A stretch of DNA of 64,000 nucleotides from Amphiscolops sp. MND2022 (Eukaryota): positions 70,556,001-70,620,000 of the forward strand of contig OZ076412.1 in assembly GCA_964187785.1 (NCBI GenBank). Direction: 5' to 3'. Under the pieces are notes generated by a model, which saw only the letters and a list, made by a program, of their open reading frames with translations, searched no databases and was not told the origin of the DNA. The translations under genes were made by a program, and so were the position numbers. Each line of letters starts with the position of its first letter. Within the stretch, counting starts at the first letter, position 1. Positions 37,901-64,000 of the stretch are shown here, in pieces.

Positions 37901-39073
37901 AAGTTCTTAATCATGATGATTTTCCCTTGTTTCATGACAATTTTGTGTTTTACCCTAAATTTAAAACAAAGGCGAGACAGAGGCTTCCAAGTGTTCCGGG
38001 AACTCGTCCAGTTCCTTTTCAAATTGGGCCGACGCTGTATCCGACCAGCTAATTTACCCATTGAGAGTGACATGCTGAACATTTTGTGTCTGCCGATACC
38101 AGACGTCAAGGCCTTGAGCATCAGCGATTTCCTCTCAAGGTCAAAAGTAGAGACGAGACTCGAAACGACTTGTAAAGCCCAAGCAGAGGCTGAAAAAGGA
38201 GAGCGTAAAAATGAAGGATTGAAGCTGGAAGAGATCGCCTCGAAAATTAAAGAAGAGTTCGGACGGAGTGCCCGTTCCTACGTTATCTTTCTGTTTAAAG
38301 GGGCACAGGGGCTCACCCGATTCACCTCTGGTATAGTCAAAGGTCTAGGGTCTTTTGACCTCGAGATAATGCTGGTCGAGCCATTGGAGAATGCGGCGTA
38401 TTGCTTCAAGCAGCTCTTCACAAGTTTTCGACTCCGGGGATTATTGCAGCCAGAGGAGGAAACAGTTTATACTGAAGAGTATATGTCTTTCCGTGACATA
38501 CTTCGTCAATCTCACCCGGGTGTGCAACAGCCAAAGCTTTTGATTGCAGACACCATCGAATTCGTTTGTGGGCAAGAGTCCTTCAAGTCCAGAGTGTACC
38601 TGCGTCACATATTCCGGCTAAGTTGTTTGTGTCTGGATGAACATCGCCTGTCATTCCCGCTGGTCAAATTTGGTTCTCGTCGCACTGACGACCCTCTAAG
38701 TCCTATGTTCGATGTTATTGCGCCCATACAATCGTATCTTGACAATGTGCCCCGAGGTCTAGATGTCCTCACTAGCGATTCCTCCATCACGCGGTTCGTA
38801 GCATTAGAGCAAATTTTTGGTAATGGCGGGCTTAGTGATGTGTACAGCCTCTGGGATTCGATCGACCATTTTGGCAGGGTCCAAATTAGGGGAGCTCTAG
38901 GTACCGTCGGTACCGGGCAGTCGACGACTTCCAGCGTTGATGGAGCTGCTGAGAGCACTGGTTTGAAGCCTTTCGCTGTCCCAAAGCCTTACAAGCGCCG
39001 TAGTCATCTACTGTCTGGGAAGGAACTGGCGGATTCTGCTTCACGTCTTGCCGCTAGTTGCAGTAAAGATTAA
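34932..39073 (+). CDS. Antisense multi-exon gene of element E: zinc finger plus catalytically degenerate hAT-like domain
   Basis: Exon 1 34932-36932, exon 2 37079-37572 (1-nt frameshift near 37232), exon 3 37637-37771, and a terminal exon within 37880-39073. GT-AG introns in phase 0. Exon 4 unresolved. Confidence 0.85.
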
Positions 39074-39237
39074 TTGTACCATATGTACAAATGTATGTTA
39101 GACTTTGCCTCTCATGTATAAACTTTATCTTGTTTTGATTGTTTTATTGTTATTTTAGTCCAGTTTGTTGGTAATTTCCTAGTCAGTTTTAGTCTTTCAG
39201 TTGAGATTGTTGAAAGAGACAGAATATTACTATTTGT

Positions 39238-42200: not shown

Positions 42201-43529
42201 TAGGTGCCATGTGGTCACCAGGTCTATAGATTCAACATATTTCATCCGTTCTTGTGTCAGAACAGTGAAAGTGGCTACTTGCGTGTCCTTTTTAAGAGTG
42301 TAGGGACTGTCAGTAAATTTCTTCAGGTGGACTGATACTTGACCATTGGTCAAGGTGACTAGAGCAGCACAAAAGGCTATATCGCCATCATCAGTGATGT
42401 TGTTGCTCGGTTGAAGGATCCCAGTAACTGTAGTGACCTCGTACAGTTGTGAAGCCATTAGGACCGAGTGTCGGCCATTAGGTGGGATGGTTACATCTTC
42501 CCTAATGCAAATGGGTTCCATGACATTAGTGTATTTGTGATCCGCGGTCTTTGATTGCATGGAAAAGAAAGGAAAATTTAGGACTCCTTGTCTCATGTCC
42601 AGGATAGTGTTGTTCCGTTGAAGGAACGAAAGGCCAATCAAAGGACTAGTGAGTTTTTCCATGACCATAAATATTTCGTGAAATTCTATGACGCCAACTT
42701 CAAATTTAGGTTCGACAGTGCTCTTTGGTGTTTCCAGCTGCTCATTTGCAACCATGATTTGGAAGTTGGGTGCCGGGCCCTCGTTGACAATAGACTGAGG
42801 GGCTAGTAATCCGATTTTACGTAGATCAGCTTTTGGGATTGCGCTAGATAGAGCTCCCGTGTCTAGAAGGCCATCTAGAGTTAGTTCGCCAAAATCCATT
42901 GGAAAATAGAGCATTCGTCGTTTGTGTTTGAGAACAAGATTGGTTGTTAGCGGTACATAGTCTGGTTCACCTGTTCTGGTGACTAGGGTGTTCACAAAGC
43001 GTGCTGTAACGGCTGTAGCCAGGGAGACTTGTGGTCCCACATGGTGGAATTCGTCGTCAACAGCAGCGTGATTCGTTTGATGAGTGAAGAAAGTGCCACG
43101 TTGCCATGGGTCGACTCGGGCCTTTACTAGGACCGCATTGAGTGCTTGATCAATTTCAGTGGAGTCTGACTCTATGTTCTGGTGTGGCTTGTTAAAATTA
43201 TGGTAGAAGTATAGATGATGTTTATTGTAGGAATTAGAGTCCCAATAGGGGTCAAAACCATAGTCAGGGTCAGGGTAGTGCGGGTTATAGTCATCAATAA
43301 GTGGTATCATTCGTATAGTGGAAGTATCGTTTTGTAGTCTGTTGGACATAGGGTCCAACGTGGTGGAAGAGATAGGTGGATTCTTCATCTGCTGCTGCCA
43401 GTCAGCCGATGGTGTTTCTTTAAGAGCTGTATAATATTCTGTATAATATTTGTTTGGAGGGTCAGATAATACGTATTGTCGAATTTCGAGTTTTGTGTTT
43501 ATTTGGAGTCGTGGCGAAGCTAGTTTTTT
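39238..43529 (-). pseudogene. pol: Element E pol; deletion near 40662 removes the RNase H end and integrase N-terminus
   Basis: LLDTGA protease, CAQYVDDIG RT, ALDVFSRYLF and ITDKGTAF integrase. ILTDNK is fused directly to GCEICIKDK. Confidence 0.93.
43523..43529 (-). promoter_or_regulatory. -1 ribosomal frameshift heptamer A AAA AAC (element E)
   Basis: Immediately precedes the gag TAG. The -1 frame is open into pol (LASPRLQ...). Confidence 0.75.
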
Positions 43530-44632
43530 GGATTTTTTAAGATTGAAGTTGTTTGCTTATTTTTTGTGTCTTCTTGGCTGGTGGACGTATCGGTAACTGT
43601 GGTGTCGTCCATTTTAAGGTTTCTGGGCTTGAGATGGGCTCCAGCGCCTTTCCAACATCGTTCCGCCGGGTGATTCGTTTTGTCGCAAGTTGGTCATTTT
43701 GGATATTCTTTCTTGGTATCCTGTCCGTCATTCCGGCGTTGTTCCTCCTTTCTTTTAGGTTTTCGACAATCATCCTTGACATGTCCGGGTTTTTTGCAAT
43801 AGTTGCAAGTAACGTTGGGATCAATGCCAGAAGAAAGAAGGCCAGTTCCCGGTCGTTTTGCTGTAGGGGCAGTGGACATTGTTGGTACGGGAATGTCGTC
43901 CCATTCCTCAAGTCCGTTGAGCTCTAGCTCACGTTCTAAATGGGTGACAATTTCTTCCTAGGTTGCGTTTTCAAGTCTAGCCATGTTGACTGAACGTTTT
44001 AATTTCGGCGGCAATTTGGCATATAGTAGGCTGTCGATCATTGCCTGGGCATTTTCGCCAAACGCTTTTTCTGCTCCTTGGTTGAGTTCTTCAAGGAAGT
44101 CTGGCAATTTCATGGTGTTTGGGTCAAACACCAATCTGTGCCATTTGTGTTTGGCGGTCGCCTGGGACTCTGGTTCGATGTATTTCCGACAAAATACTGC
44201 CAGGATGTCCTCCAAGGTTTGCCTGTTTGCCTTATTTATGTTACGGAAAGTTTGTAGAGCGTTCTTTCGTAACAATGAATGAACATGATTTATTTTCATT
44301 GTTTCAGTCATATCCGGCTGCATTTTAATCATTGTGTGAAAGAAATCTTCGAAAAGTTCAACTTTCTCTGATTTTCCGTCAAACGTCAGTGTAGTCGTAC
44401 TGACTGGGCGTACCATCAATGTTTGTTGGGATGGACGGTTATTCATACCGACTAGTACTTCTGAAACACGGTTGATAGGGTCAGAAGGAGTTGTAGGTGC
44501 TGTAGTCTCAGGGACTTGAGGGATTGTTTCCTGAGGCTCGTGATCGGTCGAATTGTGGCGTTGCAGGGGTTCACGGGATTGCATGGGACGTCCAGTGAGA
44601 AACTCAGGAACCAAATGTAGGGTAGGGCTGGC

Positions 44633-44643
44633 TCCTGTCACCA
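44633..44643 (-). promoter_or_regulatory. Primer-binding site TGGTGACAGGA (element E)
   Basis: Follows the 5' LTR end and is absent after the 3' LTR end. Confidence 0.85.
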
Positions 44644-46263
44644 TGTCGTGGTTTTGTTCACTATTCACAGAGTCTACTGAACTCTGTCGTGATCTTAGTC
44701 TATTGTTTTCCTGCATAAAACACTTTCTAGGGCAATTTTCCCACAATTTCTGCGCGTCTTCAACTTCGGAGTTCCAATGTAGCCCCACTGGACCTTCGGT
44801 CTCCCGTGGTGAAATTAGCTGATTTTGAACTATCATGTAGCCCAATGGACTCTCGGTCCACCACGGTGTGATTTACTCTGTCCTGCATTTCCAACGTATT
44901 TTGGAAGGAAGGAAGTATTTTCTCAGTGATTGCGCTACTAATAGCGTCTTGTATTTGAATGTTCAAGCTATTTTTGATTTTATTTAGTTTCCTTGACATT
45001 TGATTAGAAATCTCTTCATTAATCATTCTAGTGGTCTCAATAGTAATTTCATTATTCTCCTTGCTATTTGTATTGAGTAAAGATCTAAAATCCTCCCCAA
45101 TTACGTTCGAACTTTGCTGTGGCCTATTGGACCCTGAGTCCAAATTTACTCCGTTTTTACTAATATCATTTTCCTCATCATCCCTGGAGTAGCTTCCGAG
45201 CATTATATCAACATTTTCCACGTTGGACATCATGTCCAATTGTCTAGATCGTCGCTCTTTAGCTTTTTGTTTCCTGGTTGAAGGCATCGAAGAATCAATT
45301 TAATCAATAATGAATTGATCAAAAGAAGTTATCGAAACAGATTTCAACAAGTGAAAAGACAAATCAATTTATGTAGGATTTGTGAACGTAGTGTTAGGTA
45401 TCGCAATTACTGTAAGAATCATCCTCGGGACCTGGCGTCCCTGCTATTTATATTTTCCACTGCATTAACAGGTCATTGTTTTAAATTTAGCCCCAAAAAA
45501 GGCTAAAAACAGCCTTGAGGGAGATGACATCATTATTACCTCACTTTCAAGTAACTATAAATAGCAACAGGTTATATTAAAGCAAAAGGTGTGGGGGTTT
45601 CAAAGTTATACCAGAGGGCCTTTTAGCATCAAATAAAATCTACATGTGCGTCATAATATCATCATGATTGCATAACGGATATAGTAAGCAAATAAACGCG
45701 TTAATAATACCAAAGCGGGCCTAAAGTCCGAATAGCTACAGCACAGTGACGTCATAGTCATAGTATATGAATAACACCATGGCGAACTCAAGGTCCGTTT
45801 GACTACAGTAAATATAATACTGCCTTCTGATTGGCTATGAGTGTTATAGACAGCGCGTACAATTTGGCAAAGGAAACAAGCATTTGAACTCGTTTCCTTT
45901 GCTACGTACAATTGCTAATTACCAATTTCACAGCGTTGAATTTATTCAATTTGCCATTGCTATTACATCAATTAACTAACAGTTCTAGGTAACACAAACA
46001 CTAAATAGATAAAAATAATACTCCAAAATATGGTTAATATCCGTATAAGAGTGAGTTTAAGTTTGAAACATTTATTGTAGGCAAATCGACCGACGGTCTA
46101 CTATGGTGTAATTTGCATTCCTCTTGTCGTATGCCATGATGGTGCTTCTTAAGTCGCTGAGTTTTTCTTAATTAGATCGGTAGAACTTCTGGGGGTGGAT
46201 TGGGCACACTAATTCCCGCTGGAATTTGATATAGAATCCCGTCACAGGCGGCAGCCTGCGACA
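44644..46263 (-). repeat. 5' LTR of element E (1620 bp)
   Basis: Aligns with 31405-33035. Confidence 0.95.
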
Positions 46264-46268
46264 GCTAT

Positions 46269-47155
46269 ATTTAGACCTTCCAGGAGTCTGACGCAATATT
46301 ATATTTTTAACATTTGACCCTAGAAACATTACGTTATGATGATTTACATAAAATTGAAAGTCATGTAACTAAAAACACCACCCAATAGGATCAGTTGAAG
46401 GAGGATCATCAAAAGATCATTCTTCTAACCATCATTCGAAAAATATCACACATTCAGAGCAGTCATTCAATTTCACAAACAAATCACAATCCCCAAACTT
46501 CGCAGTTTCCTTTCTCTGTAAAAATAACTTCCACAGTTTCATTTTGCCAAAATATCTTTGTAATTCAAAGATTTTTGCACCCAACATTGTTTTCATTATG
46601 GGAAACAAGAGAAATAGACGATCGAGGAGAGTAGAGTCTCAATCATCAGACAGAGACGAAAATACTTCAGAAACAAGCTTCGCTCAAGGTAATGGGACTT
46701 TAGTTGGTGTTTCTGAAAATGTTAATAATGTTCTTGACAGGAACTTAGGCAGCGAACTAACAGAACCTTCTCTGATAAGCAATGAGATAGAAGTCATTTC
46801 GCAAAGACTAACAGAGCAGAATAACGACAAGATGTCACAGATTGAAGAGCAACTAAATAACAAATTCGAAGAGATACTTAAGGAGACTAGAACAAACAAA
46901 AACCACCTTGTAATAACTGATGAAGAGGATGTTGAGAACAATCAGCCCCGTCCTTCTAACTATAGAAATAAGGGTCTCAGGAACAAACACGCATCAAATT
47001 GAACATCAGATAAAAATAAGAATCAGGATGACCGGTTCTATCCTCTGAAATGAGTGAATTAAGACAACCGTACACTCCTCTTGGGATTGCTGAAGACACT
47101 TTAGACGAAACCAACATCATAAATGAAAACAGACAGGAAAGGGCCGATCATCACA
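46269..47155 (+). repeat. Element F 5' LTR, right part
   Basis: Aligns with ~61040-61935 and ends GGGCCGATCATCACA followed by TGG. Confidence 0.92.
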
Positions 47156-47166
47156 TGGTGACAGGA
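47156..47166 (+). promoter_or_regulatory. Primer-binding site TGGTGACAGGA (element F)
   Basis: Follows the LTR-terminal CA. Confidence 0.85.
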
Positions 47167-48122
47167 CCTACCAAGAACATCCTGAGACAAAGTTCGACTA
47201 ACTCCACCACCAATACACAAGGACCACACGCACAATTTCCTCTCGAGCATCCTGAACCAACAGATCCCGTCAGTCAAATTGCCATAGGAATCGAAAACTT
47301 CGCAAGAAGAAATACCGAACCATCCCTTTTTCACCCGAAGAACACACTTACTTTCAATGGGAAATTAGATAAAAATGAAAAATTTGAGTATTTTGAAGAT
47401 CTTTTCCACACAACACTCAAAATGCAACCACACCTCACGGAAAACATGAAAATCAACCATTTTCATGCCCATCTAAGAGGACTAGCATTGAAAACTTTTA
47501 AAAACATCCAACGATTTCCGACAACAACACTTGAAGGTATACTAGTAGTCTTCAGAAGGAAATATGTTAAGCCTGAATCCAGTGCTTCTGCAAAACACAG
47601 ATTTAACCGGCTCATGTTCCAACCAGTTCAACCAGGCTTACCTCGAAAACGGTACCTAAGAACAAATAGTGAGACATCTAGAAAGAGAGATGGAGCTCAA
47701 TGGACTCGAAGCAGATGAGCCCCTAATGAAAACTCAAATGACTGCAGTCAAACAACAAACCAACACACAAAACACTAAACACCCCCACAAAACACAAAAA
47801 CAAAAACAAAAACTCCAAACACAGTACCCAACAGCACACTTCAAGATAACCAATGCCGATATTGCAAGAATGAAGGCCACATAGCAAAAGAAAGCCCAAA
47901 AGTTGCAAAACGACAGAAAATGGATCAAGACCCAGATGCACCAAGATGTTACCATTGTAACACCCCTGGTCATGAAGAACCAAACTGTTACTTCGGAGCA
48001 AACATGGAAAATCGTCCACCTAAATGGACACTCACCGAAACCCAGAAAAAACTAATCGAAGAATATAAAAAATCAAACAAGCCAATCAACCCTCGAAATC
48101 TCGAACCTTCGACATCGAAGGA

Positions 48123-48129
48123 TTTAAAC
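48123..48129 (+). promoter_or_regulatory. -1 ribosomal frameshift heptamer T TTA AAC (element F)
   Basis: Immediately precedes the gag TAA. The -1 frame reads LMKPRLQ, matching LASPRLQ in E. Confidence 0.75.
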
Positions 48130-51100
48130 TAATGAAGCCACGCCTTCAAACCACAACACCCCAAAAACAATGCTCAGCAGATGACTGGCAGCATCCGCCG
48201 AGCCCCAAACCTATAAAAATCACAACCTACAATCACAACTCGACAAACAAAAAAGACTCTCCGACTGCAAACACTCAAACTACACCACCTTCAAAAGAGG
48301 ATCTTTATGACTTACTCAAAGATGCCCCAGATAATTATCGACTACGATCCATGTTTGAACCTGAAACTGAAACCGAAACACAAAATCAGCAACCCACAAT
48401 CTCGCGACCTCAAGAAACACAAACTGACCAATTAAAAGTACAATCCACATCGACAACCCAAACTGACGATGACACTACATCGGAATTAACCAACACTCTC
48501 TTCAGTGCGTCTCCTGGAAAGCAACCCCTCCTTGATGCCGACGTTTTTAATTACCTCACAACAGACGAAGGTAATAACGTCGCATACCTAAAACTTTCCA
48601 CAAACCTTACCCTCGAAAGAAGCGTCATATGTACTATTTCCCAATTGATTTCGAGAATTTAACTCTGGATGGACTCATTGATACTGGCGCCCTTACAAGC
48701 GCCATTTCTGAAGAAGATCTCAACAAAATAAAACTCCTTTCAAACGAAGCCATAAAAGATACTGGTCCAGCACCCAATTTTCAAATCATGGTGGCAAATG
48801 GTCATTTTGAGCAACCCATCGGCACCGTCTTACTTCACTTTGAAGTAGCAGACTTCCAATTTCAAGAGAACTTCATTGTCATGAAGGTACTACCCAACCC
48901 ATTAATCGGCCTGTGTTTGTTACAAGGACACAATGCCATGTTTGACATTCGTCAAGGGATAATTACTTTCTTTTACCTGTCGATGCAACTACGACCAGAC
49001 CGCACAACAAATACCCGAACAACAACACCCCTCCTAACAGAAACTTCATTGACCCTACAACCTGGAGAAACCCTCGCAATCTCCAGCAAAATGCCACACC
49101 TGATAGATCACAATGCCACAGGTATTGTCACTCCGTCGTCACTAATGGAAGATCACGAAAGTATTTTCATTACATCTTCCCTATGTACGGTTAATAACAA
49201 TACAGTGGGCTAACAAGTGATCAATTTTTCGGATATGCCTTACACTCCTCCTATTGACACACACATGGCAGACTTCCGAGTTCTTACGCTCGAACAGATT
49301 AAACACATCAAACCTGTTAATCCATCAACCCTCACATTCATGATGCATCAATACATGGAATACACAGATCTATACCTCAACCAATTGATGAAAACAAATC
49401 AATCATCAGATGAACCAGAAACTTACTGGTTCCCAACGCCTGAGGAACCTGGGGATCCAGATACATACATTCCAATACAACAACGCATATTTGATGAACT
49501 ACTGGAATTCAAACAGCTAGAACCATTAAACCCAAACGACAACGATGAGTCAAGAATGAAATTTTTCAGTCACTTCGACTGGACAGACACTACCCTAAGC
49601 CCGTTCGACAAACAACACATAGAAGACATCCTGGTACAATATCACGACATCTTCGCAAGACATCGTTTCGATATAGGTACCAATAGAGAATTCAAGGTCA
49701 AACTGACTCCGAATGATGACAGACCAGCCTACAGTCAAAGTCTTCCTACACCCATCAACCTCAAGGTCGACATAACTGTTGAACTGGCCCTTCTTCATCG
49801 TTATGGAATCATCACGACCCTACCGTTCTCTAAATACGCAAGCCCTATTTTTCCTCAGAGAAAACCAAACGGACGCCTTCGACTTTTAGTGGATCTACGC
49901 AAAATCAACAACCTCATCACTCTGGACTACGTGAACAACAATCACCCAGTTAGCACTCTGTCAGATGCAGCACCGCATATGGCCGGCAAGAAACTTTTTT
50001 GCAAACTTGATTGCTCTCAAGCATATCACTGCTTGCAAATGGCAGACTACTAGTCCATACAGATGTTAGCCTTTAATTTCGCAAGTCGAACATTCGCATA
50101 TCGCCGCCTTGCACAAGGTCTCAGCCGATCACTGTCTGCTTTCTCATCCTTCATGAGAGAATATTTGGATAAGGCAATCAAAGCTGATCAGTGCGCTCAA
50201 TATGTCGATGACATTGGTATCGCTGCGAACGATTCTACCCAGCTTTGCATCAACATCAAAACAGTCTCTGAATGCATACGCAAAGCAGGACTCAAACTTA
50301 CGATGGCCAAATGCCACTTCGGAGTCAAACAAGTTGACTTCTTGGGTCGGACAATTACCCCAGAAGGAGTCTCTCCACAAACTGCAAAAGTCAAACAATT
50401 CCTTCAAAAACTCAAATTTCCGAAATCCAAAAAAGCACTCCACAGATATATTGGGTTTCTCAACTACTACAGAAACTACATCCTTCGCTTATCAGAAAAA
50501 CTAACCCCCTTTTTCAAATTGCTCAAACAAACATCACAATTCTCCATTCCGGATACAATTCTAGAGGCATTCAAAACTCTCAACCAGCAACTGGAACAAT
50601 CATGCAAACTTGCTCTCAAACAACCGATCAAAAACAAACAACTCATTTTAATGACCGACGCTAGCTTTACAGCGGCAGGATACGCCATCATGATTGAGGA
50701 TGATCCCGACCAAAAGCTCCAATCTAGAAGGAAAACCTACGCTCCAATAGCCTTTGGTTCAAAAACTTTTAATCCAACCCAATTGAATATGTCCATACAC
50801 GCAAAAGAGTTCCTAGCAATCTACTTTGCATTTTGTGAATTTGGACACTTAATGTGGGGCAGCGTTTTTCCTGATATCGTCTTCACAGATAACAGATCTG
50901 TAACTCGCTTTTTTCAAACCAAAATCAACCCTCCGGCTCTTTGGAATGCATGCGATTACGTCCTCCAATACAATTACGTCATTGCACATGTTGCCGGGGC
51001 CATGAATACGGCTGCAGATTGCCTATCGCGAGCTGAATCGAACCCCACAGAAAAACTTGAAATGAACATCCGCAATGATGTCAATACAAAAGCAATTGAA

Positions 51101-53116
51101 GTTAACATACAGTCCACTGGGGTCGCCGAAGAGGAACTCCTATACATACTTCCTGGAGAATCCCCCACGAAACAACAATTGTGGGAAGAAAAAGAAGCAA
51201 TTCGTCAATAAGCAAAAACTGAAACCCACAACGAACCGGAAAATGAAGTGTTCGAACTACAAACTTTCCACAAACCCACAGCGGGAACCATCAACTAAAG
51301 AGAGGGTCACTTCAAAGACAATGCAAAAATCCGCTTAGAACAAAACAATGATGAAGTCTTTGAAGACGCAGTTTGAGAGCCAAAATTGAAGGCAAACCCT
51401 ACGACGAAACATAATTCACACAAGACTACCAATACAAACATTATTTACAAAACATCACGAGGATTGAAATCAAGCAAGATGTCCCAACAAGAAGATACTA
51501 CAATGACGCTGGGATGATATCCCAATACCAAATTCTTCTACCTAAACAACTCCTAGATGAACTCCTTCATGCCCTTCATGGTCATAATGCAAATCATCAG
51601 GGAATAACTAAAATGATCCAAGAAGCACGACAAAAATACTACTACCCGTGCATCGCCAAATATATCCGGAATTGAGTGACAAAATGTCAAATGTGCATCC
51701 AAAACAAACGGATCAGCAATGACCTACTCAAAACGAAACTACTAAACTGCCCTGAATGGGATTCAGGCCCAGAAGACATCCTACAATTGGACATCTTTCC
51801 CAATCTCCCACCATGCGGAGGATATGACAATATCATCACTGAAATAGACGTGTTCTCACGCTATTTGTTTGCCTATCCAGTCACGAGAATCACTGCTCCA
51901 GCAGTTGCAAAAATGCTTATGGACATTTTGTGTAAACACACATATCTACCCACAACAATCATTACCGACATGGGCACCCAATTTAATTCTCAGGTTACAA
52001 AAGAAGTAGCCGCAGTCTTGAACATAGAACTGAAACATGAAACGACAAAACACGCCCAAACAATTGGACTCTTAGAACGTACTCATGCATCAGTCAAAGC
52101 GCACCTTAAGGCAGCCACTGGAGAATTTAGAAATAATTGGCACAAGTTTTTACCATTGGCGGTCTTAAACCATAATACAACCTACCATGCAACACTAGGA
52201 TGTGAACCTACACGGGTCTTCCATGGAAGAATTCCACACAATATATTAGATTTCAAACTTGGATACAACCCAAATCCTCGTTTCCAACCCCAAACTGAGG
52301 TAGCAGAGGAAGTACAAAGAAAGATTGCTTTACTTCATGATCAAACGAAGAAAAATATCATGCAATCTTACCTCAAATATAAAGCATATTACGACAGGAA
52401 AGTAAAGGCATCACCTCTAACGACAGAGGATTATTGCTTTATCCTGAATCCAAAGGCCGACACACAAGCCACGAAGATACCTCTCGTGAATTTCGTTGGG
52501 TTCTTCCCTAAAAAGTTGAAAGAGTCCTACCGAACAACAATTATATTGTTCGCAGATTGGGCACAAATAAAACCCAACTACTCCACCGCATTAGACTACG
52601 AAAATACACTCCACAAACTCCTCTCGCAGACAATTTTGTCAGAGAAACTGACTGGCAGAAAGAGGATACACTTGTCTCTCAAGATGATTTATACGCCCAT
52701 GCTTGAGACAGCAATTTTGGCAGCAGTCCATTTGATCCTGACCACGAAAACTGTGATCAACAGGAAAACACAGTGGAATATGAACCTACTTCTCAACCAA
52801 AAATATACCACCCTCCCGCCCTCAATAATTCAAAAAATAGTGGGGGATCCCAGCAGGACAACCTGCTGCGAACGACAAAGAACCTCAAATAACCAAAAAA
52901 ACTTCTTCAGAAAATGAAAATCATGAGCCCATCCCAGAAACTTCCAGAAATCCAGAAGATACTCAAGAAATCCCTTCCCAAAATTCCCCAGAAACTCCCG
53001 AAAATAACCCAGAAATAGATGCACAAGAAGCTGAAGAAACTGTCAACACAAGAGGCGAAAAAAATAACCTACGCCCAAACCCCAACCCAAACTACTCAGA
53101 CTCTTTTAGATACTAA
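48123..53116 (+). pseudogene. pol: Element F pol (protease, RT, RNase H, integrase), several stops and frameshifts
   Basis: LIDTGA, CAQYVDDIG, LMTDASF, EIDVFSRYLF, ITDMGTQF and IGLLERTH. C-terminal NLRPNPNPNYSDSFRY*. Confidence 0.95.
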
Positions 53117-53384
53117 AAAGACAATACAAGAGACGCAGAGACTTTATGTAAACACTACAGCCTCAACTGCCGTCGCTTCTTTAACTTTCAGTTTCAGTTT
53201 TTTCCCTTCAGCACAGAGACTGGAAAGTTTTATCTTTTGACTCCATTACGGGGGAAGAAACCAAATTAGGCAAATTAGCCAAAACAAAGTAGATACACAA
53301 ATATCCAAACAACAACAGAAATAAATACACTAAAATCAAAATCACATACAAAAGAGAATGAACAATATAACGTCAGAGTAGTCT

Positions 53385-56300
53385 TCACTTATCTTCAACA
53401 TTCTTCTTTCGGGCGACAAGTTTTTTAGAAGATCCTTGCTTCACCTCAGGCAGGAAAGGTATGTCGGTCACACGCCGAGTTACGGAAACAACAAGAGTAC
53501 CAAGAACAGGAGACTTTCGGGTGTTTTTAGCAGAATTGCCAGTAGCGCTGGGCCCAACTTGAATAGAAGTAGGTACAGCAAATTTAGGAGGAGACCGGAC
53601 GGATGTAGAGTCAGGTTTCTTGGGACTACTTTGAAGCGAAACCCAAAGCTTTTCTTCATCGGAAACAGTACATGTTTATCGTGAGTCCAGTTGGTTAGAC
53701 AGTCGTCGGCGCCGAGAAGAACATGAGAAAGTTATGTCCCAAACTCTGAAATTTTCATCCTCTAACAGACTCTGACCTCGTCCAAGTAAAGAGAAGACCG
53801 AGGACACAGTTCGTGGATTCGAATATAACTCAGACACACTAGGAACTCCAAATAAAGAGGACTGTACACTCCTTACACATGACTGGAACTCATTAATATC
53901 GGATTTCAAGTCCTCTAGAGCAAAAGTAAAGATGTGTGGAATGATAGGAGCAGCGGGGAGACACAGATTGAAAATGGAGAACAAATTTTCCCGGCAATGT
54001 AGTTCATAATAATTTGTTAAAAAGGTAATCCATTCGCCTTTGTAAGAAACATCATGCGATCTGAACTTCTCCACAAACGACCAGTATTCAGTCAGGATCA
54101 GCGGTTTAGCGGCATGGGATACCCATTTTTGCTGAACAAAGAAGTCACAAAGCATTTCGGATTCGTGAGTGTAATCCACCTCTTCCCAAAATCGAATAAG
54201 GGCTTCGTCGAAGATTGAAAAACCGCGAACAAGCTTTGACTTACAAAGTTTATGCTTCAAGAGAAGAATGCATACGTTCTTACAGAAACTTAGGGCTTGC
54301 TCCACAAAATGCGAGGGCGTCGGCAGATCACTTTCAGCAACCAGGTCGGCGAAGTCTTTGTTGCGTAAGAAGTCGGCTACAGTTTTGTAAGGCAAATTAG
54401 GGGACGAGAGATCAATAGTCAAGAAATGGTCCCAATTAGAAATGTCGCCCAAGAAGGAAACGGGGAGTATGGTCTGTAATTGACTGTAAACAAAGGTAGC
54501 AAAAGCACTGAAGACGCGGAAACCATCTGGGGGGTGATGGCCCGATCACTCCTTTGAAAGCTGAAGTATCTAAACAAGCAGAATATTGAGCACACTTAGA
54601 GTGATACGAATTATGAATGAAGAATAACAACTAACAGTGCAAGAGGACATTTCGGATCAAAAACAACTTGACCGCATACGTTTTGTCCTTGACGAATGTT
54701 TCATCTAGACTCTTTGGCTGAAGAAAACACATACTAAAAAATCGAACAACACGCGAGACGCAAAAATAATAATAAAAACAATAAATACCTCTTTCATGTG
54801 ATATTTGAATGCCTTCATTCGATCAGCAAGTCGAAGATGTGAGACAACATGGCTCCAATTACGATACAATTGCTCAAGGATTATGACTGATTCCTCATGA
54901 CTGTACTTGAGACTAGAAATTGCCTGAAACAACAAACAAAATCGGAAATTATGATGCATTATGCTGAATTCTGAATACAGTATAGGATGTCACACAGCAT
55001 ACATCAGTAATTATGCGGATTATGCGGTTTTCAGAAGGAAACAGCATAGAAGAACGAATTATGCGGTTTTCAGAAGAAAACAGCATAGAAGAATGATATA
55101 TGCGGTCTTCAGAAGAAAGCAGTATAGACGAATGAATAATGCGGTTTTCAGAAGAAAACAGCATAGAAGAATGAATTATGCGGTTTTCAGAAGAAAACAG
55201 CATAGAAGAATGAATTATGCGGTTTTCAGAAGAAAACAGCATAGAAGAATGAATTATGCGGTTTTCAGAAGAAAACGGCATAGAAGAATGAATTGTGCGG
55301 TTTTCAGAAGAAAACAGCATGGAAGAATGAATTATGCGGTTTCCACGAGGAAACAGCGCAAAAGAACGAATTATGCGGCTCCCAGGGAAGGACAGTACGA
55401 AGGAAAGAATTATGCAGTTTTCAGGAGAAAACAGCATAAAAGAACAAACCGTATCATCTATACCGTTTTCTGGAGAAAACGGCATAGGAGGATGTATCAC
55501 GAGACTTAGAAGAAAACAGCCTATATGATATAGTACCCGAAAGAAAACAGTAAAAAACACAAGGAATACGAAACCGAACTAAATAAAAATCAATGGTAGA
55601 ATTAGCTAGTGATTCGACTAATATTATGCAACATTATGCGGTTTTCGGAACACAGAATAGGAAGACTATGACTCAACGTAGACTACAACACAAAGCGCAA
55701 ACGTGGAAATTAGTACACCTAGAAAGAATAAAATTACGTTGGAATGAGGGACATCAAAACATTCCAAAAATTAAATGAAATTACCTTGCGGAGTTCAGGG
55801 AGATCGCTGAGCCACACAGAGCCAGTGGCTGATCGTAATTTCATCAAGAGGAATTGCAGCACGCTGTGATGGTCATAACGGTCAAGAATTTTGATAGCAG
55901 GACCAGCTAAGACTTTGCCCAAATCTTCGAAAGAAAACGTGGGTATTACACATACGTTTGGTGCCTGGACTAATTCTGCTGAAATGGTTTTCGTAGTGCG
56001 CCCGTCAAAACCCATGACTGAGTAAAGTGGGGGAACGGTCGGAAAGATGGCTAAGAAAGAACTGATCGTTTGAAGGATCTCTTTGGGCGAATTGAGGCTG
56101 TTTGTAAATTCAGCCAACAGAAACCGATTGAAGTCATTTCCGGACCAGAAGACCAGGATGAGCTGAGAATCGTATTGTTCCGTTCGAAGTTGTAGCGAAA
56201 ATTGTCCTGATTGGCCAATGGAAGTCGAAGAGTAAGAGAGCAGTGTGCGGAACATATGGACCAGAATACCCTGTAAATGTTAGAAGACAAACAGTTAAAA

Positions 56301-57720
56301 TGTAGACAGGAATATGTCAGAAGTTGTTTAGAATGACAGGAAAAGGAAATACTTACGAAAATGCGTGCAACACTCCAATCGTATTGGGGAACTTTGACAG
56401 GCCCGCGGACCTCGAGACTGAGATTGGACCAAAGTGAGGATAAGATGGTTGAGTCACCCCCTTGTTGTAGACCGGTTAACAAATCCGTATTTGAGAACAA
56501 ACTACAGACGATGGATCGAGTTCGTCAATTGCTACAGGAAACTTTCGTTGTCCTGGTAACAAGTAGCATTCTCCCAGTATTGGAATGATGGGGTACGCAA
56601 GCTCAGCTTTCTCTCGAGCCTCGACAAGGGCCGGACCTGTTAGCTCTTGCTCATCTTTCCCGAAAAGCGGCAACCCCGGAGTTTCCATCCTAATTCGTCG
56701 CTCGCGAACCAGGTGGGAGTCTATTCTGTAATGGGAAAGAATTTGCAAAGATCCTTTCGTTTTGAGGGATAACTCAATGTGGGCAGACTCTACAACGCCA
56801 CTTATGGGGATGATTCTCGGAAACAGCAGGCGCGGTCACAAAAAACTTAAAAACCGGATGCTTTTTGTACATGCTTCCAGTTAACTGAAGCCTTGGCCTG
56901 GGTCTATTTGATGCAGAAGCTTGGTCTCCCTGAGGATCATGAGGAGGTACTCGATCTCTCGCCCGTAATTGGCTCCTTTCTCGTCGCGATCTTCCCGGAG
57001 GAGGTGTAGGTTGATCTTCACTTACACTTGTTGGGGAAAACACAAGCGAAGAATCAAGATTTATCCCACTCGTTTCTGCCAAGGTGGTTGCCCCAGTGGT
57101 AACAGTGGGAGTCATCGAGAACTGTTCAAACAACCTTGAGCTAACTGCAGTCGTTACCTCAGAAACCAAAACTTGCATTCGTCGCTCAAGGGCGGCTAGA
57201 TCTGAACTGGTGACAAATTCATTTCCTGAGAACTGGGGAGGTATGGCTGATGTACTTGCGACTAAAGCGCTGAATGCAGCTACGTCGGGGTTGTTGTCCT
57301 GCGGTGGTTGGTAGATGAAATTTGAGAAGGATGAGAACGGAGTCCGCTCCGATGGAGTGTCAATGGCAGTAACGTCGACGTTTTGGGTCACATTAGGATC
57401 AGCTAGTTCATCCATTGGAGTTATGCTAGCTCTTGAGTCTGGCCTTGGATTCACATCAGGTAAATCAGCGACAGTGCCAGGATCACCGAGAAAACAAATT
57501 GCAGTTTCTGTGGGGACCGCACTAGTGTTGAGGCTCTTGTCAAAAGAATGTTTTATCCCATCAGCGTCGACGGAAGTTCCAGAACTCTCTTCGAAGGCGT
57601 AATTATGATCAGGAGTAGAATGATGCGGAGGAAGACCAAAAGGGAGCAACAAAGCCAAATCACCGGTAGCTGAAGTCGATTGAACTGGCAGATTAGATGC
57701 CGCGGTGTCTGAAACACAAC
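53385..57720 (-). pseudogene. Antisense multi-exon gene of element F: zinc finger plus degenerate hAT-like domain
   Basis: KWRCRVC...KTKG...ILSHY...H finger near 56700-56790. Introns 56356-56271, 55784-54924, 54788-54718 and a donor at 54635. The last exon includes ORF 53676-54452. The 5' end is uncertain. Confidence 0.82.
55018..55495. repeat. Minisatellite, 39-bp unit AATTATGCGGTTTTCAGAAGAAAACAGCATAGAAGAATG, about 11-12 copies
   Basis: Direct reading of the sequence. It lies inside predicted intron 2 of the F antisense gene. Confidence 0.95.
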
Positions 57721-59288
57721 CAAATCAAGAAATCAAGAATAGAGGACAGTTAGGAACGAAAACCAACTGTTAATACAATGAAAACCTGATCAACTTTCAC
57801 TTTAAAAAAACAGAACTAGTTCGACAAAATTGTTCATCAACTTGGACAAGAAATCCGGAAATAATTTTGTGAAAGTTGACGAGAATTGGAAATCTGTTCA
57901 ACATTTAAAACGGGATGTTAGAAAATGTCCGGTGATGACTGATTGAAATCTAATACTCAGATGCCTTCCCCTATTTCAATGAATCTGGAAGAATGTGATC
58001 TAGAAATACAAACCTTGTGTGGAGGGCTCGTCTCCTTTCTGTTCAGACATCCCGTTTCACTACTGGCGAAAGAAGAGTAGAAGCTCGGAAAAGGATGAAA
58101 TCGTACTGGAATAATAATTGAGGAAAGGAGCAAGACAAAATGCGAGCAGGCTGTGTAAACCAAGACGAAGAAGCGAATAATGATTTGCTGGTAGAAACAA
58201 TGAAGAAGGCTCAAAATCCTGAGGAAGAGAAGAAAAGACAATGTCTAAATCTGAAAACTATAATGTAGAGAGGTAAACTCGAATTAAAGAAGATCTGAAA
58301 ACTGATAAAAGAAGTGTGGAAGTGAAGCTGTAGGACTATCTCGACTACAAGATTAGGACGATTAAAAGACTGTGAAAACAAAAGGAATTGAAAGATTTTC
58401 AATGCAAAGATTGAAGGCAGAAGGCGTGACTATTAGCGTGAAAGGCAAGAAAGCAAATGGACGACGTCAGTATTGTCGTTTTCAGCGTATCTCAAACTTG
58501 ATTGGCTAAGAAGGATGTACGTAGTTTGGACAGCTCTGCCAGCGTACACCAATCGTTCAGCGCAACTAAGAACGCCAATGCATAATCACACGACGTTGGG
58601 AGCGCTTCGGAGCAGCATAACTATGCAAAATCTTATGCTGAAAACTTACTAGAGCAGTATGACGCGATTATGCGGAATTGAGTGAAAAACAGCATAATGA
58701 ATTTATGGTGATAGCAAAGAACTATGATGCATTATGATGTTTTCAGTGAGAAGTATATGATGTAAATTACTACTAATACTGCCTCTTCATATGTTATGAG
58801 GTGTTAAATGAATGAATGAAAATTTACACTTCGAAAGGAGTGATTCATGCAACGAAGCGTGAAAACTTTCACTTTGATAAACCTGAATGAACCTATGATA
58901 TATTTAATTATGAGCAATTAAAATTATTCAGACAGAATAAGAAGACGACAATTGAAACATAAAAGAAAATGAAAAGAAAATTTCAGGATCTGATGATTGT
59001 TTATATGACAATAACAATTTTACCGGTGCTATTCCCCCGATATCTCATGATAAATTACCTGAAAACCCGGGAAATGGGTAATTCGAGATATGTTTTGATG
59101 CTATTTGTAAGAAAACCTCTGTAACCCAATAAAAACTATAAGATCTTATCATTCTGATCATAAATCTTCAAAAACTAGCCGCTTATTTTTCCTCCCTCTC
59201 TTTGACAAATTCCTTGAGAAATTTATAATCATATTGTGTTAAATCTTCTTGAAACTTGACTGGAATTAAATAAACTCATAGTCTGACA

Positions 59289-60233
59289 ATGGAGAGCACA
59301 CCACGAAACTCGATCCTTAATAGAACAGATTCAATGAACCCTGTATTGGACCTGATCAACATCTCAAGTAGTTCGGGGGAAGAATTCATGGTGGAGCCCC
59401 TCTCAGTGAACGATCGCGATGAAAGATTTAGATCTGCCCCATACCCTCTGACATACATGTCCACAGCCTTTATGGGGGCAGCAGGAGCAGTGTTATTCCC
59501 TAACAGTACCGATCCACAAGCAGGAGAAGGTCAACAAATTGGTACTAGAAACTCTCGTATCGAAAATGAACTGATGGACCTCATGGATGACGTATCTAAT
59601 ATATCCTCCCTGACCTTCATCGGATCATCAGAAGAAGAAGACAATCCGTTCCTTGGTGCCAATTTCGCTAATGTAGATCAGGCTGAAAGAAACAGCTATG
59701 GTCGACCAGTCCAAAGGGTACAACCTATGGTTAGAACCCCAAGAGTAACAAGAGCAACAGTGAACCCGCTCGTACCAAGTAGCAGAAGCGCTTTCTCAGT
59801 GGTAATACCGGAACAAAGAAGGGCTCCAGAAATACAAACACACCCACCTATGCAAGCTAATTACTTGCCTATGCCCATTCCATTTTACCCCAATAATTGG
59901 AAGAATATTACACATCCTCAACAAAACTTTCACGGTCAAGCTCAATTTCAACATCAGTTGCCGCCTAACGGGCTTATATTGCAGATGAACCCCTCAGTAA
60001 AGCCCGAAGTGGCCGGGTTTTGTGCTGGCTGTTCCAAAACTTATGACCAAATTGCTGTCGAGACGCTCACACACTATGTTGCGTGGTCCGAATATCCAGA
60101 CGAAACAATTTGCGATCGCAATGTGAGGTCAAGAGCATTTGTTGATGGGTTTGGAGCAGCGCTGATCGTCTTCAAAAATGCTGGACTGTCGCCGGCTCAC
60201 CCGTGTGAGATGTCCGGAGTGCCACATCGATGA
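59289..60233 (+). CDS. Sense accessory ORF-S of element F (314 aa, intact), stop inside the 3' LTR
   Basis: ATG-to-stop open. C-terminal GFCAGCSKT...E.LTHY...AFVDGFGA is homologous to ORF-S of A and E. Confidence 0.8.
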   Translation: MESTPRNSILNRTDSMNPVLDLINISSSSGEEFMVEPLSVNDRDERFRSAPYPLTYMSTAFMGAAGAVLFPNSTDPQAGEGQQIGTRNSRIENELMDLMDDVSNISSLTFIGSSEEEDNPFLGANFANVDQAERNSYGRPVQRVQPMVRTPRVTRATVNPLVPSSRSAFSVVIPEQRRAPEIQTHPPMQANYLPMPIPFYPNNWKNITHPQQNFHGQAQFQHQLPPNGLILQMNPSVKPEVAGFCAGCSKTYDQIAVETLTHYVAWSEYPDETICDRNVRSRAFVDGFGAALIVFKNAGLSPAHPCEMSGVPHR

Positions 60234-61935
60234 AGCAGTCAACGCTGCTTACCCATCATGATGGCTGTCTACCCGAATATGGACAAGAACTTGATAAACA
60301 TTTCAAAGTTTAAACTTAAACAATACTTGTTTTTTTTCGTTTGATAAAATGTTGCTTTTAGTTGTACATTTCATTTAAAATGATGATTGTTGAACGTCGT
60401 TATTGATTTTATAGTTTCACCTATAGGGTGCGTTGATCAATTGAAAAACAACTGGAAAGGTAACGCCAAAGTTATCAAAACAGTGCTAAATCTTTGTTTT
60501 GTCGTCTTCAATGATAGGAAGGAATTAAATTCAATGGTCCTATATATCTTTGCTACATTAAGTCATTTGTAGTTCAATCATGAGGAAAACAATCAAAAAC
60601 AGTATGATGATCCATTTAAAAATCAGCATAATGATTTCGTACGTTTCTTTGATACTGCTTATGCGGCATTATGCAGTTTCCATAAAACAGCATATGCGGT
60701 TTTGTTAAAGAAACAGCATAATGATTATGTACGCAGTGTAGTTTTGTACCTTGTATTGCATGACGCGGTAATTCAGCAGAAACAGCATGATGACTTGAGT
60801 TAGAAACAGCATATGCGGAAACCCTGTGGAAACAGTATGACGTTTCAATATAAGAACAGCATATGCGGAAATTTGACAGAAACAGTATGATGTTTTAACT
60901 TAAAAACAGTATGAAGATTCTTTTTTCAGTTGATAAAATTATACTGAATTATGAGGTTTTCATGAGACAGCATATACTGCATTATGACGTCAAACAGCAT
61001 AATTTGCAGGATTTTCAGTGCTACGATGTTGTAAGTCACAGTGCTTTGTTTGGACTTTCCAGGAGTCTGACGCAATATTATATTTTTAACATTTGACCCT
61101 AGAAACATGACGATATGATGATTTACATAAAATTGAAAGTCATGTAACTAAAAATACCACCCAAAAGGATCGGTTGAAGGGGGACCATCAAAAAATCATT
61201 CTTCTAACCATCATTCGAGAAATATCACACATTCAGAGCAGTCATTCAATTTCACAAACAAATCACAATCCCCAAACTTCGCAGTTTCCTTTCTCTGTAA
61301 AAATAACTTCCACAGTTTCATTTTGCCAAAATATCTTTGTAATTCAAAGATTTTTGCACCCAACATTGTTTTCATCATGGGAAACAAGAGAAATAGACGA
61401 TCGAGGAGAGTAGAGTCTCAATCATCAGACAGAGACGAAAATACTTCAGAAACAAGCTTCACTCAAGGTAATGGGACTTTAGTTGGTGTTTCTGAAAATG
61501 TTAATAATGTTCTTGACAGGAACTTAGGCAGCGAACTAACAGAACCTTCTCTGATAAGCAATGAGATAGAAGTCATTTCGCAAAGACTAACAGAGCAGAA
61601 TAACGACAAGATGTCACAGATTGAAGAGCAACTAAATAACAAATTCGAAGAGATACTTAAGGAGATTAGAACAAACAAAAACCACCTTGTAATAACTGAT
61701 GAAGAGGATGTTGAGAACAATCAGCCCCGTCCTTCTAACTATAGAAATAAGGGTCTCAGGAACAAACACGCATCAAATTCAACATCCAATAAAGATAAGA
61801 ATCAGGATGACCGGTTCTATCCGTCTGAAATGAGTGAATTAAGACAACCGTACACTCCTCTTGGGATTGCTGAAGACACTTTAGACGAAACCATCATCAT
61901 AAATGAAAACAGACAGGAAAGGGCCGATCATCACA
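60187..61935 (+). repeat. 3' LTR of element F (1749 bp)
   Basis: TGTCGCCGGC...CATCACA followed by TSD GAGAG. Confidence 0.95.
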
Positions 61936-61967
61936 GAGAGACATACTTAAAAACATGCATTTCGTAA
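61377..61967 (+). CDS. Intact LTR-encoded Gag extension in the F 3' LTR, reading 10 codons into the flank
   Basis: ATG 61377 is open for 186 codons to the LTR end (ERADHH) and then continues RETYLKTCIS*. Confidence 0.7.
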   Translation: MGNKRNRRSRRVESQSSDRDENTSETSFTQGNGTLVGVSENVNNVLDRNLGSELTEPSLISNEIEVISQRLTEQNNDKMSQIEEQLNNKFEEILKEIRTNKNHLVITDEEDVENNQPRPSNYRNKGLRNKHASNSTSNKDKNQDDRFYPSEMSELRQPYTPLGIAEDTLDETIIINENRQERADHHRETYLKTCIS

Positions 61968-62489
61968 GAAGTACGGTTTGTTTCACGAATCGTAGTGTGA
62001 GGTTCATGATTGATACAATCGATCTTGGAACAGTCTTGTTAACATAGGAGTGGTAGTGCCGAGAGAGTCTACTTGAATGAGCTTTTTTGAAACACTTCGC
62101 TAGTCGAAAACAGTTTTGAAACTTATAGTGCTGCATATCCACGTGATCCAGGATGTGCAAAACTAGCTTCATTAAAATCAGATCAAATGAAAATAGTGAC
62201 CAAGAAAAAACACGAAAACCGTCGTCGACAAATAATATCAGGATTTCAGTTATCTCGACTTTGCTAGTTACAGACATGGATGGTGTACAGCATCGAAACT
62301 CTGTTCACAGATCTGTACCAGCTTAGTTTTTGTAACAAAAATCTATTTGAATCAATAACTTTACTTCCTGAAAGTTCCAACACAATGACTAATGAGAATG
62401 CGGGTTAAAATCATCATTAGATATTTCATATGCAAAACAAGGAATCACCGATAATTTTCAAGTATTGAACATATCGCCCGCCTTGATTT

Positions 62490-63720
62490 CCTCTAGGCAA
62501 ATCAATGTAATTGCAAGTCAGTAGTAGGGCAGTGGCAGTTTCCGCAATTTATGAACGGCACGGTTATATTCTCCCCTCCCGGAACCTCGCCCAATGTAGA
62601 GTTGCTTGACACGTCCTAATGGCCATTGTAAAGGTGAAACAATGTCATCAGTTATGTACACTTGATCTCCAAGCTTTAGGTTGGGGACTTCATTTCTCCA
62701 TTTACTTCTTTCTTGGAGAATGGCGAGGTACTATTTACTCCCTCGCTTCCAGAAATGTGTCAGTTTTGTTCGGATACAAGCCCATCATTTTTCGAGTTGC
62801 ATTGCGAAACTGAGACTGCTTTTTGACTAATTTCTACTGTTGATGCACCCAGCTTCCAACTTTGCACCCATACACAAAACTCCTGGAGTGAGTGGTAATT
62901 CATCTTTAGAATCATCAATCAGAAAACTAAAAATTCAAGACCATTTCAATCTGACAGAGGTCTGCAGTTCTTCATGATTTGGGACACATTTACCCAAGAC
63001 ACGTCCAAGATGCTTTTTAGCGCTTTTTATGGCCGCTTCCCACAAGCCACCGAAATGAGGAGTCCTGAAGGAATTATTGTTCAAACAACTGACAGTCCTG
63101 GTAAAAAGCATGAAAAGAATCGCTATGATTGGCTAAAAGAAGCTTTCGAAGTTCTTTCAGCTCTGCTTGCGCTCTAGTGAAATTTGATCCGTTATCGCTA
63201 AATATCCTTTTAGGACAGCTTCGGCATGAAACAAATCTTCGTAGTGCAGCAGTAAAGGCTTGCGAACACAAGTCTGACACTAACTCCAAGTGAACAGCAC
63301 AGCTGACAAAACAAATAAAAAGTGCAATTTAAACCTCAGCCTCGTTCGAGCCACCTGTATTACACACACAAAAATGGTCCTCCGGAGTCAACACCAACAT
63401 CTTGGAATGCTCGAGTTGGAATATCTATTCTTTCTTTCTGTGAGTCACCCATCAAAGGAATAATGTCTCTGGTTAGAAAGCGACAGCATGAAACACAGTT
63501 TCTGACAAGTTTGCGTATCATTCAGGAAAAGATTCAGCATTTGAAGTTTACCCCAATTCACTTGTGGACTAGTTTGAAGCGTTTTTATTTCATCGGAGAA
63601 GAAGGTTCCCGCTCCTGTACGAAGAGGTGGTTCATGGGTTCAGTTACCTCGCTGGTTGTGATGAAAATAGAATACTTGGTTTTATGTTTACAGATAGAAA
63701 CAAATATTTTGACCTAAGCG
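62490..63720 (-). pseudogene. BEL/Pao retrotransposon integrase remnant with C-terminal DUF5641-like region
   Basis: GVDSGGPF, ELVSDL...ALRRF...IFSDNGSNF, PHFGGLWEAAIKSAKKHL, HFWKR...KW...LGDQV...WPLGRV and RAVHKLRKLP. A GGCGGG tract then TGTT (probable 3' LTR start) follows at 62471. Confidence 0.88.
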
Positions 63721-64000
63721 ACAATTCAGAGAACTCTTTTTAGGGAACTTTGAGCTGATAAATCCATTTAATCTTGATTTCTGCAACTTGAGACAGGTTA
63801 ACCAAAACTTTTTGTTTCAGTGCTTCTTTTTTGGTAGCTATTTCCGTTGTTTGTAGCAGTGCTACGGTAATCAACCACTAAGGCCACTTCCACCATAAAA
63901 CAATTGAGCAGGATTTTAATGAAAAGTTACATGGTTATATCAGCAACAATTGTTGACTAATTGTTTCCTTCTCGGTTTAGCTAATTAAGAAGAATGGTAG

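Follow-up and report, generated by a model that had tools for sequence, protein, structure and literature searches.

Element F, an LTR (long terminal repeat) retroelement of Amphiscolops sp. MND2022, carries in its non-coding parts a short DNA site with the form TATGCGG-N14-CAGCATA, an oriented dyad of fixed spacing in which the two half-sites are conserved and the centre is free. The element lies within a 64,000-bp stretch of contig OZ076412.1 (positions 70,556,001 to 70,620,000, forward strand), referred to here as the window, which is a nest of Ty3/Gypsy elements within a 1.07-Gb genome (self-BLAST, Pfam). F occupies 30595-61935, with LTRs of 1.75 kb that have TG...CA ends and a flanking 5-bp target duplication, GAGAG, at 30590-30594 and 61936-61940 (self-BLAST), and its protease, reverse transcriptase, RNase H and integrase domains (PR-RT-RH-IN) follow the order typical of Ty3/Gypsy (Pfam). 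Beyond pol, in the 3' direction, there are an antisense gene with three predicted introns, a spacer, and a sense open reading frame (ORF) that reaches into the 3' LTR, and elements E and A of the window have the same layout. Judging from sequence, we lean somewhat towards a reading in which the antisense gene encodes a captured, disarmed transposase that would bind the sites of its own clade and regulate the element, in a manner resembling VANC and TnpA.

A preliminary description of the window had reported a 39-bp repeat containing an inverted repeat, and this much stands. The array, at 55019-55444 on the plus strand, has a period of 39, 10.9 copies and 85% matches (Tandem Repeats Finder), with degenerate units extending to about 55495, and the arms ATGCGGTTTTC and GAAAACAGCAT can pair at 10 of their 11 positions. 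Each unit is an intact or decayed version of the ATGCGG-N14-CAGCAT dyad. The 26-mer that was said to occur in every unit is exact in only 4 of the 11, and a loose form of the dyad is matched by 6 of the 11. The half-site ATRCKGTTT is found 34 times in the window against an expectation of 2.66, a number reached in none of 100 shuffles, and all but one of these matches (33/34) lie in the intron, spacer or LTRs of F, the remaining one being at 29375. Complete dyads number 20, all of them in F: five at 30988-31269 in U3, the left part of the 5' LTR (30595-31404, plus strand; self-BLAST), six in the array, two at 58635-58695 (plus strand) in the spacer that separates the antisense gene from the divergently oriented sense ORF, and seven at 60580-60912 in U3 of the 3' LTR (60187-61935, plus strand, 1,749 bp), the centres of these last being unrelated. 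Elements A, D and E hold none.

Further loci were fetched from the genome, 36 via the array and 20 via the finger protein encoded by the antisense gene, and gaps were counted over 33 loci, namely the 36 less four that were duplicated, rearranged or off-target, plus the window copy. Outside the array, head-to-head half-sites are separated by 14 bases in 261 cases, against a shuffle mean of 1.0, with lesser peaks at gaps of 38 (128), 0 (63), 21 (59) and 11 (48). Across the whole genome TATGCKG-N14-CMGCATA occurs 1,416 times, compared with 8 sites at gap 17 and one for the reversed control. The recurrence of half-sites in U3 and spacer had been noted correctly, but the variable spacing ascribed to them is rejected on this dominance of gap 14, both in the fetched loci and in the genome. 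Among the 1,416 sites, 11 are of the GG/GG type, 199 are TG/TG and 1,206 are mixed; of 706 dyads in the fetched loci, 543 place the GG half upstream of the TG half, and a single one has the reverse order. The F site is thus oriented and is not a true palindrome. Decay of CpG was considered as the origin of this GG/TG asymmetry and rejected, since deamination does not produce a G/T difference.

Genome site counts are inflated by the copying of both elements and array units, and they indicate fixation rather than independent events. Independent evidence of selection on the half-sites comes from column identities across 26 distant U3s, in which identity to the window copy is 0.78 in half-site columns, 0.56 in nearby flanks and 0.40 in dyad centres. 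Within the window copy itself, the central five bases of the nine spacer and U3 sites are 0.27 identical to one another. Conserved ends, a free centre and a fixed length are together the signature of a site that is read by two linked DNA-binding modules.

The dyad belongs to a clade. A total of 51 F-clade loci was assembled, of which 49 were counted after one near-duplicate and one locus covering pol had been dropped. Dyads are present in all three zones (intron, spacer and U3) in 45 of the 49; the exceptions are three loci that are duplicated internally, rearranged or without U3, and one without a spacer match. As 34 loci had been chosen via the array, we rely on the 15 chosen by protein (61-75% finger identity) for a fair sample, and in these all three zones carry dyads in every case (15/15). 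Arrays occur in 48 of the 49, with periods of 38-40 and 2.2-37.8 units (median 12.1), while the finger exon zone and two gag-pol stretches of these loci contain no dyads. The motif had been called family-specific, and it is indeed tied to F-type elements, but it marks the whole clade rather than one family. It is not common elsewhere in the genome: when ten sites away from known F genes were fetched, nine turned out to belong to the LTR, spacer or intron of F-clade elements, solo LTRs and an internally deleted copy among them, and the tenth, left unassigned, is about 240 bases from an LTR-like fragment. A neutral origin, in which an old repeat has spread by slippage and been copied along with the element, would suit the wide range of array lengths and the inflated genome counts. 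This reading is largely refuted by half-sites that are conserved above their flanks while the centres are randomised, and the gap is also held across subfamilies with saturated synonymous sites; three different codes, moreover, recur in comparable non-coding zones. We consider a neutral by-product extremely improbable.

The preliminary description had proposed looking for an enriched motif in each family, and the sister clades E and H do each carry a code of their own. The 20 E-clade loci contain no F dyads and no comparable intron array, and single-word enrichment in E gave nothing strong; the E code was exposed by a spaced-dyad scan alone. In this de novo scan for spaced inverted repeats, GGAC-N5-GTCC ranked first, with 135 sites at gap 5 against 0-7 at the other gaps from 0 to 15, and the core GAC-N5-GTC has 389 sites against 28-70 at other gaps. 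Within the window, the core is found 24 times in A, 13 times in D and 30 times in E, compared with 2.0, 3.3 and 2.9 at other gaps, whereas F has 4 compared with 3.0. The earlier remark that the F motif is absent from A, D and E was therefore correct, but these elements are not motif-free. Element E, a member of the sister Gypsy clade, lies on the minus strand at 31405-46263, inserted in the 5' LTR of F with a target duplication GCTAT, and its 30 sites run along its full length, for example at 32490 and 32557 in U3. The stretches 31405-46263, 1-11500 and 17300-28400, which comprise E, A, D and a solo LTR, bear GGAC-N5-GTCC with gag and pol included. In the genome, TGGAC-N5-GTCCA has 6,699 sites, counted irrespective of element, while a gap of 6 gives 398 and the reversed pattern 324.

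Clade H, represented by five loci that are close relatives and thus only a thin sample, has a finger 50% identical to that of F and no N14 dyads. Its arrays, in intron and spacer, instead contain ATGCGG half-sites that are repeated directly, 10 and 22 bases apart, and the resulting code, ATGCGG-N16-ATRCGT-N4-ATRCRG, has 542 genome sites, many with unrelated interiors, and none reversed. The H loci (L129-L133) contain 32- and 65-bp arrays of this direct-repeat triad, for instance at about 1780-1900 and 5395-5614 of L131. Over a set of 74 loci (49 F, 20 E and 5 H), the F dyad is found in 49/49 F, 0/5 H and 0/20 E loci; GGAC-N5-GTCC in 20/20 E, 1/49 F and 0/5 H; and the H triple in 5/5 H, 0/49 F and 0/20 E. 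The three codes are mutually exclusive, bar the one E-type site in one F locus.

Sites for host factors are commonly gathered by LTRs, and host transcription factors might accordingly be the binders here, with the LTR and internal promoter of each clade tuned to a different host dimer (GCM-like for F and H). The retention of dyads in the internally deleted copy and in solo LTRs would agree with such an arrangement, and the 5-bp spacer before GTC in the E code presumably recalls Smad composite sites. The six leading bases of the F and H half-site are also identical to those of the GCM motif ATGCGGG, but GCM is described as requiring G at position 7 (PMC4701085), and G occupies that place in only 1% of array, 12% of spacer and 9% of U3 sites in F. 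Three exclusive codes that track the finger tree, the long gaps (14 and 16) and the placing of the array in an antisense intron also sit less well with a host factor, and no host target set is evident from the sampled unassigned sites, nine of the ten being in F-clade sequence, a small sample. Searching the genome for the GCM family produced no match, with the control likewise unmatched anywhere. Binding by host factors appears unlikely.

The antisense gene, on the minus strand at 53400-57724, is predicted from three-frame translation, alignments, models and splice sites to have four exons, at approximately 57724-56357, 56279-55786, 54924-54790 and 54571-53400. The array sits in the second intron (54925-55785, minus strand), which has GT...AG ends on that strand. 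The exons on either side of this intron could both be detected in 16 of 54 loci, and in these the projected places hold a GT donor in 14/16 and an AG acceptor in 15/16, as read by eye. A coding array was considered and rejected, the long frames that cross it being stop-free by-products of the 39-bp unit; for this reason, and because the period is 40 in 23 of the 48 arrays, the array is judged to be non-coding. An intron-containing antisense gene is common to clades F, E and H. The window copy is disrupted by frameshifts and stops, and stop-free stretches of other natural copies were used as queries. The gene is under purifying selection in both F and E, the ratio of nonsynonymous to synonymous differences (pN/pS) being 0.13 (F) and 0.07 (E) in the finger core and 0.15-0.33 elsewhere, the F values outside the core running from 0.21 to 0.33, with the synonymous distance saturated in most pairs. 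Several copies among loci L031-L065 have LTRs that are 87-92% identical to the window but antisense genes that are only 66-68% identical, which suggests exchange of the antisense cassette between subfamilies.

The predicted antisense protein consists of a low-complexity N-terminus, a BED-like C2H2 finger, a helical region, an RNase H-like domain and a helical C-terminus, and the order of finger and RNase H-like domain looks like a fit to the hAT analogy drawn in the preliminary description. A first look at the finger region gives 6,700-7,800 candidates in the genome, and 216 relatives were found in a public library at E <= 0.001. Many more finger clades exist in this genome, with open frames of about 870, 310, 265, 222 and 210 codons at roughly 30-35% identity to the reference finger protein. 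In the alignment of 40 finger rows C40 and C43 are invariant, H60 and H66 are present in at least 90%, and Pfam zf-BED is matched by five rows, with a best E of 1.6e-4. The language-model neighbours of the finger are GTF2IRD2, FAM200 and zf-BED clusters at 0.84-0.87, values that lie below 0.9 and serve as leads, and its structural model has a predicted local distance difference test score (pLDDT) of about 87-95 over residues 11-100. A model of the E-type relative P0161, covering finger and exon 2, has a core of three strands, helix, strand and helix at a pLDDT of about 80-87, and a Foldseek search with it returns Hermes in nine of the ten top rows, at a best E of 5.5e-3. A hAT origin of the antisense protein is probable. 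The protein may also have lost its catalytic residues: in alignments inspected by eye, F and H rows show no acidic position that is conserved on either the first or the fourth predicted strand, where folds of this type carry their catalytic aspartates, and a glutamate is kept on the predicted first strand in E/A rows. Profiles of the finger, exon 2, the C-terminal part and the sense ORF gave nothing below E 0.06 against PDB sequences; the accessory ORFs have no Pfam match over the cut-off, and PF04195 (TRP28) is unmatched at E <= 0.1 in the Pfam searches. Metagenome contigs yielded no relative, and a language-model search with the C-terminus returned low recognition.

In the finger tree, the three codes occupy separate sides. 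F and E/A each fall on one side of a branch, and two changes, the minimum, are needed for the three code labels. The nearer fingers of F and H share the ATGCGG half-site, whereas the distant E finger (22-25% identical) goes with a code that lacks it. Since integrase, Gag and the sense ORF yield the same grouping, the tree is evidence of clustering of the codes and not of their co-evolution. The binder could in principle be one of these other products of the element, be it the CxxC/helical domain of the sense ORF, the LTR-encoded N-terminus of Gag, or integrase. The sense ORF (59274-60233, plus strand, 319 codons, with its stop inside the 3' LTR) has a C-terminus with identities of 73-89% among F members, 57% to H and 25-31% to E, a pattern that parallels the motifs, and it possesses a CxxC motif and a basic helix. 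The E sites, furthermore, span the whole element, as might those of a coat or packaging signal. No known family was found for this C-terminal domain by profile searches, beyond weak C2H2 matches in 4 of 13 rows, whereas the antisense protein contains the only recognisable DNA-binding module; F sites, in addition, avoid gag-pol. Another element product is quite unlikely to be the binder. The sense accessory ORFs at 59274-60233 and 33017-33934 both end in a 3' LTR, and their C-terminal CxxC/helical domain is strongly conserved.

With the antisense protein as the regulator, the F motif would be bound, as double-stranded DNA, by an oligomeric protein with sequence specificity, most likely this product, a putative hAT-like transposase derivative that would have kept its BED finger and scaffold while losing its catalytic residues. 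The backwards placement of the gene would allow its introns to survive retrotransposition, because the packaged RNA would be the opposite strand. Two fingers held at a fixed distance would read half-sites whose centres lie 20 bp, or two helical turns, apart in F, and half-sites 10 and 22 bases apart would be read in H. The U3 sites would control the LTR promoter and the spacer sites the internal promoters, the region at 58635-58695 being a putative two-way internal promoter that drives the antisense and sense genes; binding at both U3 and spacer would couple the LTR promoter to the regulator's own. The intronic array, which presumably grows and shrinks by duplication of units, may provide a high-density landing pad or a sink, adding avidity or titrating the protein, and clades E and H would operate alike, each through a finger and a code of its own. 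By analogy, activation or anti-silencing appears somewhat more likely than repression, with repression or copy-number control as the alternative. It is possible, although we put it forward only tentatively, that a large Gypsy radiation in a non-plant genome captured and disarmed a hAT transposase as a self-encoded transcriptional regulator, and that finger and code then diverged jointly into at least three orthogonal systems (the inverted N14 dyad, the direct-repeat triad and the N5 palindrome), seeding thousands of sites throughout the host genome. A class II module would in that event provide a VANC-like programme for class I elements.

Several observations weigh against regulation by the antisense protein. 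The three clades represent at most two independent changes, and covariation does not single out this protein among the element products; element A, moreover, shares the E code even though its finger departs from that of E at several positions of the putative recognition segment. The E sites occur about every 500 bp through coding and non-coding parts alike, unlike the clustered sites of F. The E value of the Hermes match is above 0.001, and VIA-align places the P0161 model among generic RNase H-like folds (Z 6-7.4), including integrases and actin-like proteins, with Hermes outside the top 50. The C-terminal part (20 rows), where a hAT transposase would have its dimerisation domain, has no Pfam or PDB match, and a search for longer proteins with a C-terminal profile found none, which is itself weak evidence. 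CpG is mildly depleted, with an observed-to-expected ratio of 0.79-0.83, and CpG transitions are in 1.5-fold excess (104/901 against 289/3841), which leaves hardly any DNA methylation for such a system to counter; demethylation is therefore not the expected route, and the VANC mechanism proper, the removal of DNA methylation, has little support. Finally, the finger model fits RNA-binding matrin-type fingers at least as well as it fits BED domains, the comparison with TUT4 giving Z 5.7 and a root-mean-square deviation of 3.0 over 63 aligned residues, and its Foldseek matches (matrin and BED) all having E > 1.

This last point bears on the proposal that the palindromes are RNA hairpins, serving as packaging, splicing or export signals and possibly read by a matrin-type finger, the type to which the closest finger structures belong. 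The hairpin of the array unit does fold on both strands (z -5.0 and -6.2), but four of six LTR and spacer dyads have no folding advantage over shuffles (z 0.07-0.46), and the dominant GG/TG asymmetry would place a mismatch in an RNA stem. The H code is a direct repeat, one-sided variants of the E site occur in both directions (64 against 38), and these gaps show no enrichment of any other stem sequence. An RNA role of this kind is very improbable.

In some respects the system resembles that of the VANDAL elements of Arabidopsis and their VANC proteins. VANC motifs have built up as tandem repeats within introns and between genes, and the shared features are short family-specific motifs in intronic, intergenic and terminal non-coding parts, tandem amplification with changing copy number, and an adjacent accessory gene (as set out in the available part of PMC5735166). 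A motif that is dense in non-coding parts and amplified in tandem is found in F and H, whereas the E sites also lie in coding sequence. VANDALs, however, are Mutator-like DNA transposons, while the host here is an LTR element, and its accessory ORFs match no Pfam family over the cut-off. The VANDAL motifs are of 8-9 bp in one orientation, and both binding and demethylation have been demonstrated for them (PMC5735166, in part). The sites described here are, in contrast, spaced dyads or triads in LTR retrotransposons, accompanied by a BED-like protein and weak CpG depletion.

In its layout the element is closer to the plant Gypsy elements Retand, Grande and RIRE2, in which the region from pol to the 3' LTR contains antisense ORFs and tandem arrays specific to the family. 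In Retand-type elements a protein with the transposase 28 domain, TRP28, has been proposed to bind DNA and regulate, its function being unknown, and the available portions of these reports describe no link between the repeats and LTR motifs, nor a site of fixed spacing (PMC11963269, PMC7264820). TRP28 is not of the BED/hAT type, and the antisense gene here has introns and is joined by a second, sense ORF. The BED domains of the hAT transposase Hermes bind a quasi-palindrome cooperatively and depend on the exact phasing of its half-sites (PMC10368747, in part), and the combination of a BED finger with an RNase H-like core in Hermes is one that the predicted antisense protein may share. Unlike Hermes, the system is retroelement-borne, with no terminal inverted repeats, no apparent catalytic acidic residues, and a half-site gap that is much longer.

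Transposases can act as sequence-specific activators, and their derivatives may lose catalytic residues, as with TnpA of Spm, a transposase-derived regulator of cognate copies (10.64898/2026.08.24.746577, in part). The regulators considered in the available text of that source are confined to DNA transposons or have been passed to the host, and the terms 'retrotransposon' and 'LTR' do not occur in it. Foamy virus Tas offers a further likeness, as an element-encoded activator that acts on both the LTR and an internal promoter (PMC8670036, PMC13220597, each in part). Tas differs in being sense-encoded and without tandem arrays, and it is not known to derive from a transposase. By analogy, the F system would work like VANC/VANDAL and TnpA/Spm; it is laid out like Retand, and it belongs to neither.

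In a literature search that left subscription papers mostly outside and did not extend to repeat databases, no description was found of a Gypsy element that combines a BED/hAT-like antisense gene with cognate sites. What antisense extra ORFs and family-specific tandem repeats do in LTR retrotransposons is given as unknown in the available parts of earlier reports (PMC7264820, PMC11963269); here, antisense ORF and repeats are accompanied by three candidate sites, explicit and mutually exclusive, and by proteins to match. If the proposal is true, transposon-encoded sequence-specific regulators would extend from plant DNA transposons to retroelements, there would be a documented case of a retroelement that captured a transposase for regulatory use, and natural orthogonal protein-DNA pairs would be on offer.

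The remaining parts of F and its surroundings can be described briefly. The right part of the 5' LTR (46264-47155, plus strand) contains the start of a gag-like frame, and is followed by gag-pol at 47156-53117 (plus strand), which encodes capsid-like, protease, reverse transcriptase, RNase H and integrase domains (Pfam), has no dyads, and is interrupted by stops and frameshifts in the window copy. The gag-like frame begins inside the LTR (46600-47163; 61378-61935) and crosses a sequence resembling a primer-binding site, TGGTGACAGG, at 47156; in E and A a gag-like frame likewise starts in the LTR and continues past a primer-binding-site-like sequence. On the minus strand, 61940-64000 holds a remnant that we take to resemble a Bel/Pao integrase region. 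Between A and D, at 12167-15596, are two tandem repeats of 1.65 kb that are 93.6% identical, flanked farther along by inverted-repeat elements at 15637-15990 and 17338-17716.

Elsewhere in the genome, locus L137 is an internally deleted F-clade element of 8.5 kb that has kept both LTRs with their dyads and is without most of pol, the finger and the array. In locus L058, an unrelated cysteine-containing ORF fragment, which we take to be possibly envelope-like, lies in frame after the 3' LTR at 8800-9394. At G000:C13:16095878-16129764, three F-clade copies stand in tandem with a period of 15,161 bases.

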